Virus record (IMG/VR): IMGVR_UViG_2802429247_000007
Coordinates: 1-30,935 of that record
Direction: 5' to 3' (one strand)
Source: a virus
Lineage: Duplodnaviria; Heunggongvirae; Uroviricota; Caudoviricetes
DNA length: 30,935 nucleotides
Positions 7,769 to 20,755 of the stretch are shown in pieces. Below the pieces are notes generated by a model, which made no database searches, was not told where the DNA came from, and was given only the letters and a program-made list of their open reading frames with translations. Numbering within the stretch: the first letter of the stretch is position 1; the number at the start of each line of letters is the position of its first letter. Both the position numbers and the translations under genes were made by a program.

Positions 7769-7839
7769 CTGACAATAGCCATATCGAATCGCTTCCGGCA
7801 ACTCGTGAGTAAAAAGATTCGGTATCAGAAGAGGTGAGT

Positions 7840-8934
7840 ATGGCTAACGCTTGGCTCAGATTATGGCATGACATGCCAAATGACCCTAAGTGGCGAACAA
7901 TTGCCAGGGTGTCAGGGCAGCCAATTGCAACAGTGATGGCAGTGTATATCCACCTCCTGGTGAGCGCGTCACGAAATGTCACGCGAGGTCACATTGATGT
8001 CACGACAGAAGATTTGGCAAGTGCGCTCGACGTGACAGAAGAGGTAATTGATTCAATTTTGCAGACGATGCAGGGGCGGGTACTTGATGGTGATTTAATC
8101 ACTGGATGGGAAAAACGCCAGGTGCTTAAAGAGGACAACGGCAATATTTCGCAAACCGCAAAATCTCCTGCAGAGCGCAAGAGGGCGCAGCGAGAGAGGG
8201 AAAGAAAGCGGGAACAAAATGGCGATTGTCACGGCGCGTCACGAAATGTCACGCACATGTCACGACGAGTCACGACAGATAAAGATACAGATAAAGATAC
8301 AGATAAAGATACAGATAAAGATACAGATCAAGAAGATCAAAACACTATGGTCCATGGCGTAAAAAACGCCACGAACCAGGCAGGGGATGTTCAGACCGTC
8401 AATCTTGGTCAGCCAGCAGGCACGACACCGGAAGCCGATTCAGCGTATGCGCTGAAAGCCGATTCGGGCGCTGTGCAGCAGGTGATGACCGCAAGGCCGG
8501 AGCAATCACACCAACTGCAGCAGCCTGAAGCCGATTCCGCCATTCAGCGGGAAGCCGATCGGGTAGTCCCGGAAAACACCGGGCAGCCTGTGGGACGAGT
8601 AGATTATCCGGATGTGTTCGAACAGGTCTGGCGGGAATACCCGTTGCGTGCTGGGGCAAACCCGAAGAAATCCGCTTTCAGTGCCTGGAAGGCCAGATTA
8701 CGCGAGGGGGTGCCACCAGAGGCCATGCTGGATGGTGTGAGGCGTTACGCAAGATACCTGGCGGCTACCGGGAAAACGGGAACGGAATTTGTTCAGCGAG
8801 CGACGACGTTTTTTGGACCGGACCGGAATTTTGAAAACCCCTGGTTGCTCCCGGTAAGCGGTACGAACAACCAGCGTTGTGTGAATCATATTTCTGAACC
8901 GGATACCGAAATTCCACTGGGCTTCAGGGGGTAA
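7840..8934 (+). CDS. Replication initiator (O-like / YdaU-like) with C-terminal DnaT-like domain; contains internal iterons and a (DKDT)4 repeat
   Basis: RBS agaagagg before ATG 7840; N-terminal region typical of phage replication proteins; C-terminal YPDVFEQVWREYPLRAG...FFGPDRNFENPWLL. Confidence 0.75.
   Translation: MANAWLRLWHDMPNDPKWRTIARVSGQPIATVMAVYIHLLVSASRNVTRGHIDVTTEDLASALDVTEEVIDSILQTMQGRVLDGDLITGWEKRQVLKEDNGNISQTAKSPAERKRAQRERERKREQNGDCHGASRNVTHMSRRVTTDKDTDKDTDKDTDKDTDQEDQNTMVHGVKNATNQAGDVQTVNLGQPAGTTPEADSAYALKADSGAVQQVMTARPEQSHQLQQPEADSAIQREADRVVPENTGQPVGRVDYPDVFEQVWREYPLRAGANPKKSAFSAWKARLREGVPPEAMLDGVRRYARYLAATGKTGTEFVQRATTFFGPDRNFENPWLLPVSGTNNQRCVNHISEPDTEIPLGFRG
7964..8004. repeat. 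Iteron-like cluster 1: four GTCAC(G/A) motifs at about 10-11-bp spacing
   Basis: gcgcGTCACGaaatGTCACGcgagGTCACAttgatGTCACG; 21-bp block gcgcgtcacgaaatgtcacgc recurs in cluster 2. Confidence 0.6.
8228..8275. repeat. Iteron-like cluster 2: five GTCACG motifs at about 10-11-bp spacing
   Basis: GTCACGgcgcGTCACGaaatGTCACGcacatGTCACGacgaGTCACG; helical-phase spacing. Confidence 0.6.
8278..8325. repeat. Perfect 12-bp tandem repeat (GATAAAGATACA)x4, in-frame, encoding (DKDT)4
   Basis: Read directly; A/T-rich and immediately downstream of iteron cluster 2. Confidence 0.9.
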
Positions 8935-8974
8935 GTGTGTATTTCTGGTCATGAGGTAATTTTCAGGAGGGCTT

Positions 8975-9397
8975 GTGGCAAAAGTTTTTACACAAGAAGA
9001 GCGGGAAAAAATTAAAGGGCAGGTTCTTGAACTCGTACGCCAGAGTGGGCGCGAGACGTTACGACAACTGGAAGCTAAAACTGGGGCAACAAGATATCTG
9101 ATGAGCGTTCTGGCCAGAGAGCTGGTTGCCAGTGGCGATGTATACAACTCTGGTTACGGGTTATTCCCGTCTGAACAGGCGCGTAAGGACTGGCAAAATG
9201 CCCGTAAAAAGCTCTCAAGGGCAAAGCTGAAGAAACCATCTGCGGTTGATCCGGACCTTATCTGGTCATTACCTGATGGAGAAATACGTCGTTACGACAG
9301 GCGTCATAATATAATTTGTACTGAGTGTCGTAAAAGCGAAGTTATGCAGCGGATATTGTCGTTTTATCAGGGGGATGTTCGGTATTTTTTGAAGTGA
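8975..9397 (+). CDS. Hypothetical protein (140 aa), GTG start with strong RBS (aggagg)
   Basis: Occupies the position of the helicase loader (P/DnaC) but is too small and shows no such motif. Confidence 0.5.
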   Translation: MAKVFTQEEREKIKGQVLELVRQSGRETLRQLEAKTGATRYLMSVLARELVASGDVYNSGYGLFPSEQARKDWQNARKKLSRAKLKKPSAVDPDLIWSLPDGEIRRYDRRHNIICTECRKSEVMQRILSFYQGDVRYFLK

Positions 9398-9589
9398 CGA
9401 GATTAAAGTGCATTAGTTCAGATGTAAATTGACATTTTGTGGCACAGGGTAGAGCTAGCGTGGTTGTCCGCTTTGTGCCAGAAGCGGAAGTTGCTTACAT
9501 CGTGCTATGTTAGTTTAATGGGAGCAGGTAAAGGGGGGGATTCCCCAGTAATTCCCCATAGCTTCCCTACCAGGAAGGTAGGCATAAAA

Positions 9590-9620
9590 AACCAGCAATA
9601 ACAGGCTGGTTTATATAATC
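9590..9620 (-). terminator. Stem-loop (aaccagc/gctggtt, 7 bp) with flanking A and T runs; functions best as a minus-strand terminator just 3' of the tRNA fragment
   Basis: Hairpin read directly; T-run immediately follows the stem in minus orientation. Confidence 0.5.
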
Positions 9621-9624
9621 TTTT

Positions 9625-9673
9625 TGGTCGGCACGAGAGGATTTGAACTTCCGATCCCCGACACCCCATGACA
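9625..9673 (-). tRNA. Degenerate 3' fragment (about 48 nt) of a tRNA-Pro gene (anticodon loop through CCA); not a complete tRNA; att-site-like remnant
   Basis: Minus-strand sequence gtcatggggtgtcggggatcggaagttcaaatcctctcgtgccgacca matches the 3' half of E. coli tRNA-Pro(GGG) from memory with about 2 mismatches; the 5' half is absent. Confidence 0.6.
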
Positions 9674-9965
9674 CTGCTTGTAAAACGCTGAGAGCCGCGC
9701 TATTGCTGGTTAAAAGCACTATTCATATGTATAAACAAACAGTGCTTTTTCAACAAAATCTGCTCTATATACTTCAATGGCTTAAGTGGTGGTTTCTCCC
9801 CATGCTTGGTAGGTATAATACCTTGATGCTAAAGTAGGTTACTCACTTGAAGAAACAGCTAGTTAGTATCAATTATGTTGCTCCAGCTGACTGAAAAAAG
9901 TTATCAATGATGCATGGAACATACGCCCTTGAATTTTTCATTAGATTTTAGAAAAGGAATTGAGC

Positions 9966-10847
9966 ATGGGTTTAGCTGAGTGGTTTTGCGGATTTTGCTC
10001 CAATCTGACTGTAAAAGATGGTGGAACAATTTCAACTAGATATAGGAATATAACGAAGCGTTTAAATACGGATTTTTGGGATAGCAGTTCTGATACTTCT
10101 CATAGTCTCTACGTTGGATCATATGGTCGGAACACAGCTACGCAAGGCTTGAGCGATCTGGATATGATTTTTCAGCTACCATATTCCGAGTATCAAAAAT
10201 ACAATAGCTACTTAGGAAATGGGCAGTCAGCATTGCTTCAAGCGGTTAAGAGATCTATTGAAAAAACCTATGCTACCACTAGTATTAGAGGTGACGGTCA
10301 AGTGATCCTTGTACCGTTCAATGATGGAATTACATTTGAAGTCGTTCCAGCTTTCCTCAATGTTAGTGATAGTTACACATTTCCTGATGCGAACGGTGGT
10401 GGCCGTTGGAGGATTACAAATCCAAAGCCAGAAATTTCTGCAATGAGGTTAAGAAATAACATTACCAATAACAATTTGGTGCAACTTTGTAGAATGGCAA
10501 GAGCTTGGAAGCGTAAATGGGATGTACCTATAAGTGGTTTACTCATTGATACGCTTGCGTATCAATTCATTGAAAATTGGGCGCATAGAGATAAGTCGTA
10601 TCTTTACTACGATTTCATGAGTCGTGATTTCTTCAAATGGATGGCTGATCAAGATACGAGTAAGGAGTATTGGAAAGCGCCAGGAAGTGGTCAGTATGTC
10701 TATGGTAAAGGGCTTTTCCAATATAAAGCAAAACGGTGCTATAACATTTCACTCGAAGCTATAGAGCATGAAATGGCGACCCCAAAACGCGAATGGTCGG
10801 CTAAGCAAAAATGGCGGGAGATTTATGGATCAACATTTCCAGACTAA
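9966..10847 (+). CDS. SMODS-type (cGAS/DncV-like) nucleotidyltransferase, CBASS cyclase candidate
   Basis: Motif GSYGRNTATQGLSDLDMIF (GS-x9-DxD) plus downstream acidic [DE]hhP-like motif (NDGITFEVVP); RBS aaaaggaa before ATG 9966; AT-rich relative to flanking phage genes. Confidence 0.72.
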   Translation: MGLAEWFCGFCSNLTVKDGGTISTRYRNITKRLNTDFWDSSSDTSHSLYVGSYGRNTATQGLSDLDMIFQLPYSEYQKYNSYLGNGQSALLQAVKRSIEKTYATTSIRGDGQVILVPFNDGITFEVVPAFLNVSDSYTFPDANGGGRWRITNPKPEISAMRLRNNITNNNLVQLCRMARAWKRKWDVPISGLLIDTLAYQFIENWAHRDKSYLYYDFMSRDFFKWMADQDTSKEYWKAPGSGQYVYGKGLFQYKAKRCYNISLEAIEHEMATPKREWSAKQKWREIYGSTFPD

Positions 10848-11406
10848 GGATACACCTGAATCTAGAAGGGTTTTAGAAGGGCAGATCAGAGAGTGTTATG
10901 GTCGGGTCGTTTACTCACATAAGACGCATGAAAAATGCTCAGACATTCTCCTATCTCGACTATCTTCTATAAAGTTTTGGCAAATAATTCTCTCCGCCTT
11001 AACTACTGGAGGCTTTCTAGCAACTTTTTTCGGCGCGGGTGAAGTAGGCACGGGGGTTGGGATTGTTGTTTCAACACTGCTTCTCATTCTTAACGCTTAT
11101 ACCAAAGATTATGACCTTGGTGAGTTGGCGCAAAAACATAAGCAGGCTGCAAATGAGATCTGGTTAATCCGAGAAAAGTATTTATCATTGCTTACAGACT
11201 TAGCAATGGGTGAAAAACCAATCGAGCAATTGCAGTCAGAGCGGGATTCGTTACTCGAGAGTTTACATTCAGTGTATTCAGGCTCTCCTAGTACAACATT
11301 TGAAGCTTATAAAAAAGCACAGGACGCATTAAAAAACAAAGAAGATTTAACATTTTCTGAAGAAGAAATAGATGCTTTTCTTCCCAAGGAACTGAAAAGA
11401 AGATAA
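10825..11406 (+). CDS. SLATT-like two-transmembrane effector
   Basis: Start overlaps the end of the upstream gene by 23 nt; two hydrophobic helices (IKFWQIILSALTTGGFLATFF and GTGVGIVVSTLLLILNAY) followed by a charged helical tail. Confidence 0.7.
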   Translation: MDQHFQTKDTPESRRVLEGQIRECYGRVVYSHKTHEKCSDILLSRLSSIKFWQIILSALTTGGFLATFFGAGEVGTGVGIVVSTLLLILNAYTKDYDLGELAQKHKQAANEIWLIREKYLSLLTDLAMGEKPIEQLQSERDSLLESLHSVYSGSPSTTFEAYKKAQDALKNKEDLTFSEEEIDAFLPKELKRR

Positions 11407-11417
11407 ATATGTTGCGA

Positions 11418-11450
11418 GGGCAAATATAAATATTTGCCCCTATTTTTTTA
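11418..11450 (+). terminator. Intrinsic terminator: perfect 9-bp stem (gggcaaata/tatttgccc) followed by a T-run
   Basis: Read directly; 12 nt after the SLATT stop. Confidence 0.7.
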
Positions 11451-11547
11451 TTTGTTAATATTAATTTTAGCAGGGCTAACTTTCCGGTAAGAATTAATTA
11501 CTGGTCATATGCTCCTTGGTTAATAAAATTCTATGCCTTACTTGGTG

Positions 11548-11931
11548 CTAGCTGGCTTTAATTTCTCCATGTGGAACTACAACCCAGTCGATATGGTTTT
11601 GCGTGTAGATTTTAGTTGATTTCGCATCGCTGTGTGCCATTCGTCCTTGTGGATCGATGCCCTGCTGATCAAAAAGATGTGCTGCTAAGGCGCGAATTTC
11701 GTGAAAGGTTGGCCTTTCATCCATCGGCCGTTTGTCATATAAACCCAGCTTGTCACGCGTAGCTGAAAACGACCGACTCAAATAGTCTGGTGCAACTTGA
11801 GTGGGATGAGAAACTTCTTTGCTGCGTTTAACCTGCCGTTCCGGGATCTGGTGAACGATAAATGGGCTGGCCACGTTATTGCGACTTTCATCAATGATCC
11901 GCTTCAATTCGTCACCAATCGGTGACCGCTA
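11548..11931 (-). pseudogene. Truncated tyrosine integrase (C-terminal catalytic fragment only, about 125 codons; in-frame stop at 11929-11931 upstream)
   Basis: Fragment ...TFHEIRALAAHLFDQQGIDPQGRMAHSDAKSTKIYTQ aligns with the C-terminus of the intact int at 1..1119 and of lambda Int; no N-terminal or core-binding region. Confidence 0.78.
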
Positions 11932-12101
11932 CATGACGGGAACGCTTACAATCTATTAATGTCTACTAAGTGCTAGGAGCGGACATTGGTTAATGGGGAT
12001 ATGTCATTCGCCTGGGGCAGATCAAGAAAGTAAAAATCCCAGCTGTCGATAATTGGAATCCATGATAAGGTTTACGGGTAACTGATTGATAAATAAATTG
12101 A

Positions 12102-12299
12102 ATGGAATATGGAAAAATGACAAAGTCAATAGCGGATAAATCTGTAACTGATTTAACTAAAGAAATCGATAAATTAAAGAAAATTGCCAAAGATCTTGAA
12201 GATGTATTACCAGAAAAAACACCACAAATTAATTCAGCAAAAAAAATCATTGACGATGCAATAAACGAAAGAGAAAAAGAGATAGAAAAGCGTTTCTAA
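12102..12299 (+). CDS. Hypothetical small K/E-rich helical protein (likely start 12117, MTKSIADK...)
   Basis: ORF followed by a terminator-like hairpin; AT-rich tract; the antisense ORF 11990..12250 is judged spurious. Confidence 0.3.
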   Translation: MEYGKMTKSIADKSVTDLTKEIDKLKKIAKDLEDVLPEKTPQINSAKKIIDDAINEREKEIEKRF

Positions 12300-12323
12300 G
12301 CATAACAATAGACTAGTCTCTGG

Positions 12324-12352
12324 GAGGCCGTACCAGCGGCCTTTCTTCTTCC
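12324..12352 (+). terminator. Terminator-like hairpin (ggccg/cggcc) followed by T/C-rich tract
   Basis: Read directly downstream of the small ORF. Confidence 0.4.
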
Positions 12353-12966
12353 CGTAATCTAGTAAAATCGTCGGTTTTTAATCAATTAATTAACTCATCT
12401 ATTACCAACTCCTGGTTGGTTGCTAATGATGTCATAGTGTCGCTAACGGCCTGAATTACTCAGTCCGTTCTTCGCTCAAAGCGGGCTAGAAGGTTAGCTT
12501 GCGTCGGACTTGGCGTATTTAAAGAAGTGCTGGTGGTGACAGGTTATTATGTTCCATTTCTACAGAACAAAATCACAGAAACTATACCCAATAGTTGTAT
12601 TGAATCACTGACGAGACAGCCTCATATTTATCAGGACTGGTGTACGTCCAATACAGGAGGTTGTGGTGCTGGTTCTCAAATGTGCGCTGGCTATTGCTGC
12701 TGTAATGGCAATTTATTGCCTTGCTGTTGTTCTTATGGATCGCCTTTCTGACTGATTTCATATTGGCGAGGTAACGGGAGTTAAGTAGAATGGCTGCGGG
12801 TGCTTGAGGCTATCTGTCTCAGGCATGAACACCAAAGGCAGATAGAGAAAAGCCCCAGTTAACATTACGCGTCCTGCAAGACGCTTAACATTAATCTGAG
12901 GCTCAATCTATGCTGAACACATGTAGGTTAGCCTCTTACGTGCCGAAAGGCAAGGAGAAGCAGGCT

Positions 12967-13122
12967 ATGAAGCAGCAAAAGGCGATGCTAATCGCCCTGA
13001 TCGTCATCTGTTTAACCGTCATAGTGACGGCACTGGTAACGAGGAAAGACCTCTGCGAGGTACGAATCCGAACCGGCCAGACGGAGGTCGCTGTCTTCAC
13101 AGCTTACGAACCTGAGGAGTAA
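12967..13122 (+). CDS. hok: Hok/Gef-family type I toxin (51 aa); in-frame upstream extension from 12910 is Mok-like
   Basis: MKQQKAMLIALIVICLTVIVTALVTRKDLCEVRIRTGQTEVAVFTAYEPEE is a canonical Hok-family sequence (recalled as RelF/HokD-like); upstream leader resembles the hok mRNA 5' elements. Confidence 0.88.
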   Translation: MKQQKAMLIALIVICLTVIVTALVTRKDLCEVRIRTGQTEVAVFTAYEPEE

Positions 13123-18998: not shown

Positions 18999-20755
18999 TG
19001 GCAAAAGTGGCTGACGGGATCCGCTACGCCGAACGTGTTGTTGCAGGAGAAATAGTCGCTGGCGAATTTGTCCGTCTGGCCTGCCAGCGTTTTCTTGATG
19101 ATCTGAAGTATGGCGAAGAGCGGGGGATTTATTTTAGTGAACCCCGTGCGCAGCACATCCTGAATTTCTACAAATTTGTGCCTCATGTGAAAGGGGCGCT
19201 GGCAGGCCAGCCCATTGAATTGATGGACTGGCATGTATTTATCCTCATTAATATTTTTGGTTTTGTCATTCCGCTGGTGAATGAAGAGACCGGGGAAGTT
19301 GTCATGCGCAGCGATGGCAGCGGACGCCCGGTGATGGTGCGCCGGTTCCGGACGGCGTACAACGAAGTTGCCCGTAAAAACGCAAAATCAACCCTGTCAT
19401 CGGGTATCGGTCTGTATATGACGGGGGCAGATGGTGAAGGCGGGGCTGAGGTGTATTCAGCCGCAACCACGCGTGACCAGGCCAGAATTGTGTTTGAAGA
19501 CGCCAAAAATATGGTCAGAAAAGCCCGGTCGACACTCGGGCGGTTGTTTGATTTCAACAAGCTGGCGATTTACCAGGAGCAGAGCGCATCAAAATTTGAA
19601 CCGCTTTCCTCGGATGCAAACAACCTGGACGGTCTGAACATCCACTGCGCCATTATTGATGAGCTGCATGCTCATAAAACCCGTGACGTGTGGGACGTTC
19701 TGGAAACGGCAACCGGTGCCCGTCTGCAGTCCCTGTTATTTGGTATCACCACGGCGGGCTTTAACAAGGAAGGGATTTGTTACGAGCAACGCGATTACGC
19801 CATCAAGGTATTGCGAGGCTATAACAGTGACGTGGAGGGCGCGGTAAAAGATGACTCCTACTTTGCGATTATTTACACGCTCGATGAGGGAGATGATCCG
19901 TTTGATGAAACGGTCTGGCAGAAAGCGAATCCGGGCCTGGGCATCTGTAAACGCTGGGATGATCTGCGTCGTCTGGCGAAAAAAGCGAAGGAGCAGGTCT
20001 CGGCGCGGGTGAATTTTTTCACCAAACACATGAATGTGTGGGTCACTGCCGAATCGGCCTGGATGGACATGATTAAGTGGGAGAAGTGCGAATATATTGC
20101 TCCACAGCATGAGCTGAAAACGTATCCCATGTGGGTCGGTGTCGACCTTGCTCATAAGATTGATATCTGCGCGGCGGCAAAACTCTGGCGAACCGATAAC
20201 GGGCATGTTCATGCCGATTTTAAATTCTGGCTTCCGGAAGGGCGACTGGATCGGTGTTCACGGCAGCAGGCAGAACTTTACCGGAAGTGGGCGGAGATGG
20301 ATAAGCTCATCCTGACGGATGGTGATGTTATCGATCATGCTCAGATAAAAAGTGACCTACTGGAATGGATTGGCGGTGAAAACCTGAGGGAACTGGGATT
20401 TGACCCGTGGAGCGCAATGCAGTTCAGTCTGGCGCTGGCTGAAGAAGGGATACCGCTGGTGGAAGTTCCGCAGACGGTCCGCAATCTGTCAGAGGCCATG
20501 AAGGAAACGGAATCACTGGTCTATGCCGGGCGTTTCCATCACAGCAATCATCCGGTCATGAACTGGATGATGTCTAACGTTACGGTGAAACCGGACAAAA
20601 ACGACAATATTTTCCCGAATAAATCCACGCCGGAAGCCAAAATCGACGGTCCTGTTGCGATGTTTACAGCAATGAGCCGGATGCTGGTCAATGGCGGTGA
20701 ACCGGAGCCGGATCTGTCTGAACACCTGATTAGTGTTGGTATCCGCTCGCTTTAA
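18998..20755 (+). CDS. Terminase large subunit
   Basis: 585 aa; ATPase and nuclease domains; start overlaps the small-subunit stop. Confidence 0.93.

Follow-up and report, generated by a model that had tools for sequence, protein, structure and literature searches.

CBASS genes inside a probable int-attP fragment from a second, proL-targeting lambdoid phage in an Escherichia coli prophage

The 30,935-nucleotide (nt) stretch of DNA analysed here (IMG/VR record IMGVR_UViG_2802429247_000007, Caudoviricetes; hereafter the window) is a lambdoid prophage of Escherichia coli in which a defence cassette lies between the 3' part of a tRNA-Pro gene and a fragment of an integrase gene (int). Are these two relics the termini of a small integrative island or satellite that entered the prophage and then decayed, as a preliminary description of this DNA proposed, or do they share another origin? 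The comparisons reported here indicate that the block at approximately 9534-11931 is most probably an int-attP fragment of a second lambdoid phage, one that targets the tRNA-Pro gene proL and carries a cyclic-oligonucleotide-based antiphage signalling system (CBASS) in the spacer between int and its phage attachment site (attP), and that this fragment was recombined into a prophage residing at the Qin site. The preliminary description was correct in its observations and partly so in its interpretation: the tRNA piece and the integrase fragment do belong together, are foreign to the prophage, and represent decayed parts of another integrative element of which the cargo survived.

The tRNA-Pro piece and the integrase stub

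The minus strand of the tRNA-like piece (Table 1) is identical to the 3' end of proL, from the anticodon loop to CCA, at 47 of 49 positions, the near-identity to the 3' part of a target tRNA gene by which an attP core is recognised. In a BLAST search of 5,426 complete E. coli genomes the annotated tRNA-Pro was matched in every genome (96.2% over 52 nt, E=6e-14). The match is better than chance, since a 25-mer from the T arm and acceptor end (<=3 mismatches allowed) occurred once in the window and in none of 100 shuffles. As noted earlier, the 5' half is lacking: nothing upstream of the piece resembles one, so that the complete cloverleaf of a tRNA gene is not present, and ARAGORN called no tRNA in the window. 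The two mismatches (GGGGATCGGAAG in the window versus GGGGGTCGGAGG in proL) include one that, on our reading of the cloverleaf, unpairs the T stem. Because this pair is broken and the mutated core variant is absent from all 185,579 species-representative genomes scanned, the mismatches presumably reflect decay rather than derivation from a foreign tRNA.

The flanks of this core have the character of phage arms. Three nt past the int stop codon of phages Eeyore and Flotzy begins a 218-bp stretch with 76% identity to window positions 9586-9803, and in a multiple alignment the P arm, core, and P' arm (approximately 270 nt) all align with the attP of Eeyore, Flotzy, and Phi06_2987S. Eeyore and Flotzy are phage isolates whose genomes were deposited as complete, and the att site in them is therefore an unrecombined attP. 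The P arm is 76-86% identical to DNA beside the int stop or the cargo in Eeyore, Flotzy, Phi06, prophage LD91-1, and loci L017, L022, L153, and L158. When each part of the arms was scored against phage attP sites and against host proL sites with shuffle controls, the P arm reached z=22-28 against phage attP versus about 1 (<=1.4) against the E. coli proL bacterial attachment site (attB). In strain LD91-1, a prophage whose integrase gene is 86% identical at the nucleotide level sits at proL beside yejO, and in its true attL the tRNA 3' piece is followed by a host-type terminator and the yejO flank. Given that the arms in the window match phage attP and that the LD91-1 attL carries host flank instead, the piece appears to be a whole, unrecombined attP, with P and P' arms of phage origin contiguous with the core, rather than a hybrid attL or attR end with host flank. 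The earlier term 'partial att-like tRNA end' does not survive this comparison.

The second relic is, as had been described, the C-terminal part of a lambda-family integrase; the stop codon reported to interrupt it lies at its extreme 5' edge and leaves the retained part whole. Positions 11548-11928 on the minus strand correspond to residues 268-390 of the 392-amino-acid (aa) integrase of prophage LD91-1 (89.6% aa identity), and approximately 15 nt upstream of the TAG faint integrase similarity goes on in another frame. The stub keeps H342-x-x-R345, H365, and Y374, but neither of the two DNA-binding domains (arm-binding and core-binding) is left, nor is R217, the first arginine of the catalytic set; of a functional lambda-family integrase, with both DNA-binding domains and the full R..K..HxxR..H..Y set, only residues ~268-392 remain, and the Pfam Phage_integrase model matches them at 21 bits, under its cut-off. 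Compared with the integrase that the prophage itself encodes at 1-1119, the stub shows only 29% identity. In contrast to protein matches that were all <=221 aa and suggested a stand-alone 'mini-integrase' family, a tblastn search in which a longer relative of this stub served as query gave full-length genes, namely intact 395-aa integrases in Eeyore, Flotzy, and Phi06_2987S (73-74% identical over the catalytic part), and the idea of such a family was dropped. The short stub-like proteins stem from contig ends, from internal start codons, and from frameshifts, of which one lies at an A8 run that reads A7 in L153. A full-length relative in L017 has a weak match to the lambda arm-binding domain PF09003. 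The K-12 Qin remnant 'intK', which we take to be an earlier name for the ydfW/ydfX remnant, was ruled out as a homologue, tblastn having given no match. Because the stub lacks its DNA-binding domains and one catalytic arginine and the core carries two mutations, both are presumably dead relics, which would explain the PGAP-flagged 'recombinase pseudogene' and the unannotated tRNA-like piece in such prophages.

The integrase gene is transcribed toward attP, and this order and orientation are those of Eeyore, Flotzy, Phi06, LD91-1, and L158; in the window the gene is truncated and cargo lies between the two. Since attP directly follows an intact integrase of the same family in the phages, the two apparent brackets are best regarded as a single int-attP locus of a proL-targeting lambdoid phage with an operon in its spacer, and not as two ends of a nested element. 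The arrangement has the tRNA 3' core, the P and P' arms, the orientation of int toward attP, and the replacement terminator supplied by the P' arm in common with lambda-type int-attP modules of tRNA-targeting phages, from which it differs in having only the final third of int and two mutations in the core, and in lying within a different prophage, where it has no integration role. For annotation this is a warning against taking every tRNA fragment that is accompanied by an integrase stub as evidence for the two termini of a nested element.

Sequences that resemble tRNA-Pro over its full length, but in degenerate form, and that have a P' arm of phage type also occur in E. coli ST80 (L007, 5967-6048) and in N21 (L006, ~19965-20048), where they adjoin a DinI-like pseudogene and tail-fibre genes. 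One of the two is annotated by PGAP as tRNA-Pro (82 nt), although ARAGORN makes no call for it.

Table 1. Features assigned to the block and its surroundings (positions in the window)
Feature	Position	Strand	Basis
Replication initiator	7834-8934		
DUF977 / Ren-like LygF	8975-9397		
Left boundary hairpin of the slot (GTCCGCTT-TGTGCCAG-AAGCGGAA)	9466-9489	+	Fold; also in Evi and Tritos
Putative attP P' arm: replacement terminator hairpin (9589-9612) and two ATTCCCC/GGGGAAT repeats (9540-9546, 9551-9557)	9534-9624	-	Alignment with phage attP
Putative attP core: 3' 49 nt of tRNA-Pro(GGG) proL with two probable decay mutations	9625-9673	-	Alignment
Putative attP P arm	9674-9805	-	Alignment with phage and prophage relatives
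CBASS type I cassette	9899-11448	+	Pfam, PADLOC
SMODS cyclase	9960/9966-10847	+	PF18144 2e-50 (full length); PADLOC PDLC00786 4.7e-144
SLATT_4 two-transmembrane effector	10768/10825-11406	+	PF18186 6e-74; PADLOC PDLC00696 1.4e-84
Intrinsic terminator of the cassette	11418-11448	+	
Integrase stub, C-terminal ~125 codons, TAG (11929-11931) at 5' edge	11548-11931	-	Homology
0.5-kb AT-rich unit with 60/65-aa open reading frame (12102/12117-12299)	11960-12484	+	Recurrence in islands
Right boundary hairpin, degenerate (GTCCGTTCTTCGCTCAAAGCGGGC), loop TTCGCTCA	12463-12486	+	Fold; Evi/Tritos backbone resumes here
sok antisense RNA	12798-12972		Rfam RF01794, 115.6 bits

The int-attP spacer and its CBASS cargo

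A cyclase protein scan of representative genomes led to a locus of Enterobacter sp. RIT637 (L158) with the order mqo, an MFS gene, a tRNA-Pro 3' piece with host-type flank, SMODS, SLATT, int, a small xis-like open reading frame (ORF), and an Rv2179c-like exonuclease. Its integrase is intact (392 aa, 90.6% identical to the LD91 Int), and the locus matches the window without a break over 9929-11922 at 78% nucleotide identity. As this match is unbroken and includes an intact int, the att-CBASS-integrase arrangement appears to be ancestral, and the window would have lost the first two-thirds of int and everything beyond.

Other relatives carry other genes, or none, at this position. Eeyore (45 kb) and Flotzy (42.7 kb) have an empty interval from int to the P arm. 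In Phi06_2987S this interval holds a helix-turn-helix and M78 peptidase pair that is CapH/CapP-like; in LD91-1 a 289-aa protein with no family assigned; in Klebsiella quasipneumoniae L022 HEC-08; in L017 two uncharacterised proteins, a related split copy of one of which is found on contig L154; and in L153 two other proteins. In total, seven spacer states were seen in about ten relatives, and several of the cargoes (CBASS, HEC-08, and the CapH/CapP-like pair) are recognised or candidate defence systems. The int-attP spacer is thus an accessory-gene slot in a proL-targeting family of lambdoid phages, in which a position for defence genes and other cargo between int and attP is hereby documented. 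Integrase-adjacent anti-phage hotspots of prophages and satellites have been described in P4 (psu-int), P2, and Vibrio (cI-int) (Rousset et al., 2022; PMC9122126), and these have the same plan, one conserved position on the int side with a different system in each relative. The present position differs in lying between int and attP in a proL-specific family of lambdoid integrases, for which no description was found, and in that in the window a hotspot together with its flanks has moved into a second hotspot. The block adds one more case to processes already known, namely phage mosaicism and the defence hotspots that adjoin integrase genes (PMC9122126), and leaves current concepts unchanged.

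A separate observation concerns L022, where a P4-like integrase island (7806-9437; Arm-DNA-bind_3, AlpA, Toprim, DUF927) starts right after the CCA of an orphan tRNA-Pro core, which belongs to an int-stub, HEC-08, and attP remnant similar to the present block; an icd 3' fragment is found just upstream. It looks as if this relic core served as an integration site.

The cargo in the window consists of overlapping cyclase and effector genes that the PADLOC models match over their full length, and the GS...DLD motif of the cyclase is seen in GSYGRNTATQGLSDLDM. No Cap2/Cap3 or HORMA/TRIP13 genes accompany them, the sole other nearby ORF being one of 60 aa. A type I CBASS is said to consist of a cyclase and an effector only, in a classification reportedly due to Burroughs et al. 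in 2015 and Millman et al. in 2020; the cassette, a cyclase and an adjacent effector with no ancillary Cap genes, has this two-gene SMODS and SLATT layout with no notable difference. In characterised CBASS systems, the signal made by the cyclase activates a membrane effector and the infection is abortive. By analogy, infection would trigger the cyclase encoded here, if expressed, to make a nucleotide signal that would activate the membrane effector, and the cell would be killed before the phage matures. Both genes are intact in every copy that was examined, and the operon is presumably the live, selected part of the block.

The cassette alone (9899-11406) is also present, at 83% nucleotide identity, in a chromosomal locus of Pectobacterium jejuense (L157, 7869-9856), where it adjoins a second CBASS-like pair (a SMODS cyclase with an AGS-C sensor domain, and SLATT_6). 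The SMODS cyclase (9960-10847) is 60-86% identical at the amino acid level to homologues in many, very distantly related phyla, among them Planctomycetota, Chloroflexota, Cyanobacteria, and Nitrospirota, which is unusually high for a horizontally spread defence gene.

Proposed transfer into the lygF-hokD interval of a Qin-site prophage

Window positions 9000-13000 are 99.6% identical to E. coli strain C5 and ten other complete genomes, in which the prophage adjoins rspB-rspA-ynfA, where K-12 carries its cryptic prophage Qin. Around the block the gene order is replication initiator, lygF, the segment in question, sok with hokD, a DUF968/HNH protein gene, and a Q-like antiterminator gene. In the related phages Evi, Tritos, and HannyBb the common backbone reaches to 9498-9534 and resumes at 12463, and the DNA between these points is unrelated cargo. 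As they keep the backbone and hold other genes in place of the segment, the block lies in a variable cargo slot, the lygF-hokD interval. The AT-richness reported earlier is borne out (38.9% GC for cargo positions 9806-11547 versus 49.1% for the window). The sok and hokD/mokD toxin locus (12798-13121) is directly downstream of the slot, and in an Rfam scan of the window sok was the only hit, with no family for the hairpins that bound the slot.

The module occurs in 48 of the 5,426 complete E. coli genomes and in two prophage contexts. The first is the Qin-site prophage (about 12 genomes plus derivatives disrupted by insertion sequences) and the second, in AR435-type strains, is a lambdoid prophage integrated at thrW, where the module follows the tail-fibre assembly gene at the right end. 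The copies in AR435 and in the window share exactly 9474-12478 at 99.7% identity. As an indicator of the direction of transfer the AR435 copy fails, since 64 nt that it has in common with the Tritos backbone could be backbone or cassette; its two flanks are adjacent in no genome searched, so that an empty site for it was not found.

Homologies, architecture, and distribution are observed; for the direction and mode of transfer we infer the following. In the donor lineage, the two-gene CBASS type I operon would have been inserted in the int-attP spacer. Two phage genomes would then have met in one cell, with the donor in an excised, vegetative or replicating, or tandem-lysogen state, because an unsplit attP implies that the donor DNA was excised, vegetative, or tandem. 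The block, which comprises the whole attP (P' arm, core, and P arm), the CBASS operon, and the final third of int, would have been joined into the lygF-hokD slot by homologous or illegitimate recombination between the phage genomes, its int side now being fused to the 0.5-kb small-ORF unit. The unsplit attP and the single att copy imply that the block did not enter through its own site-specific integration, and of the two routes left open by the preliminary description, insertion into the phage or recombination with it, general or illegitimate recombination is the one that stands. The slot would then be transferable with its flanks into the slot of another prophage and from there into a third context, and the conserved int and attP remnants could act as homology arms for further cargo swaps with related phages.

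Several points weigh against this reconstruction. No E. coli donor with the exact CBASS allele beside an intact integrase was found; the intact relative in Enterobacter is only 78% identical. There is no diagnostic homology at the int-side junction, and upstream of SMODS no convincing sigma-70 promoter was found. Furthermore, int is cut at nearly the same nucleotide (residue ~266-270) in the window (~11929-11945), in K. quasipneumoniae L022 (5975-5998), and in contig L154 (~1990), with each of these three truncations joined to different DNA. Intact int genes have an A8 run at this spot, which is frameshifted to A7 in L153. The recurrent cut point hints at a hotspot, or at an older mobile block that was already truncated, rather than a one-off deletion.

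Boundary hairpins and alternative origins of the block

With respect to the transfer step only, an unlikely alternative puts a site-specific exchange of cassettes in the place of general or illegitimate recombination; the block would have come into the slot, and later gone out of it, at the conserved hairpins of 8-8-8 layout on its two sides. Both 24-nt hairpins have the same 8-bp arms, the right one being close to the reverse complement of the left, and in Evi and Tritos both stand around other cargo. The junctions of the AR435 copy fall at the stem/loop borders of both hairpins, so that the shared segment runs from the left-hairpin loop to the right-hairpin loop, as exchange would have it. 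The 0.5-kb unit at the right edge of the slot has a half hairpin (11970-11984) at its start and the right boundary hairpin at its end, and it recurs at 84% nucleotide identity in unrelated genomic islands, flanked there by the same two hairpin types. Exact arms (GTCCGCTT-N8-AAGCGGAC) were found in >120 viral contigs with GC contents of 33-61%, a conservation across very different base compositions that also speaks for exchange. In a search anchored on the loop and right arm, however, about half of the 96 sites were without a complementary left arm. Clustering of the ORFs <=4 kb from the hairpins in 120 viral contigs likewise revealed no shared recombinase that would be consistently nearby, the only shared proteins being DUF977/lygF among the E. 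coli contigs and, in a group of high GC content, an HNH protein, and no empty site was found.

Moreover, short-homology recombination at conserved boundary sequences would look alike. A long-standing model, cited in PMC3029335, has phage mosaics recombine at short boundary sequences that are conserved. The morons and mosaic joints of lambdoid phages similarly have AT-rich cargo with its own terminator in a variable slot and short edges conserved in several phages. The present edges differ in being 24-nt hairpins with conserved arms that are also found in non-phage islands and high-GC contigs, cases that the classical model leaves aside. The arm-spacer-arm layout is similar to that of lox/FRT and of the pdif modules of Acinetobacter plasmids. 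A full-text literature search for the hairpin arms returned unrelated primer lists only. That the 24-nt sites are the recombination sites of an unrecognised cassette-exchange system is rated as unlikely; if it were true, such a system would shuttle defence genes and other cargo, including the attP-CBASS-int block, between prophage slots and islands.

Some further occurrences of these sequences may be recorded. In the viral contigs the hairpins also form right-left junctions 18-22 nt apart and arrays. Hairpin positions noted outside the window are L003 3468/4886, L004 3467/5268, L241 4845, and L075 1795/1835. The 0.5-kb unit, with its lysine-rich 60-aa ORF (12117-12299), lies in defence-island-like settings with a 2137-aa NACHT-like protein, a HEPN_LA2681 protein, or DUF2971, and in another such setting in an island beside mutS with a P4-type integrase.

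As to the origin of the block, its derivation from the int-attP locus of a second lambdoid phage has two competitors, both very improbable. According to one of them, the block would be what aberrant excision at proL, in the manner of specialised transduction, carried off from one end of a prophage (attL or attR) and the host chromosome beside it, and recombination would have brought it into the present prophage at a later time. The hairpin and T-run after the CCA end (-10.2 kcal/mol, z=-2.75), which the preliminary description rightly located and likened to a native tRNA terminator, do resemble the proL terminator, and about half of the E. coli genomes match window positions 9586-9672 at 83-88%. 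In the scoring described above, however, the terminator was nearer to phage P' arms (score 39-45, z=12-15) than to the E. coli proL attB (22-27, z=4.5-6.6), and the next 70 nt, the distal P' arm, match phage attP only (z=6-9, versus z<=0 for the E. coli proL attB), with no similarity to the yejO-side flank of the LD91-1 attL.

The other competitor, the island or satellite of the preliminary description, which would have integrated into the prophage with its own integrase at a tRNA-like site and then decayed, leaving the tRNA piece and int to mark its two ends, is just as remote and already largely refuted: a cognate att core and an int stub do bracket AT-rich cargo, and the P4-like island of L022, lying right after a homologous core, indicates that such cores can attract integrative elements, but both attP arms are present and contiguous where integration would have split them, the window has no second core copy and thus no attL/attR repeats, an intact int and any replication or helper-hijacking genes are lacking from 9534-12462, and the full-length relatives of the integrase reside, with xis and exonuclease neighbours, in lambdoid phages and prophages of full size (42-45 kb; Eeyore, Flotzy, the LD91-1 prophage at proL, and the Enterobacter prophage) rather than in satellites.

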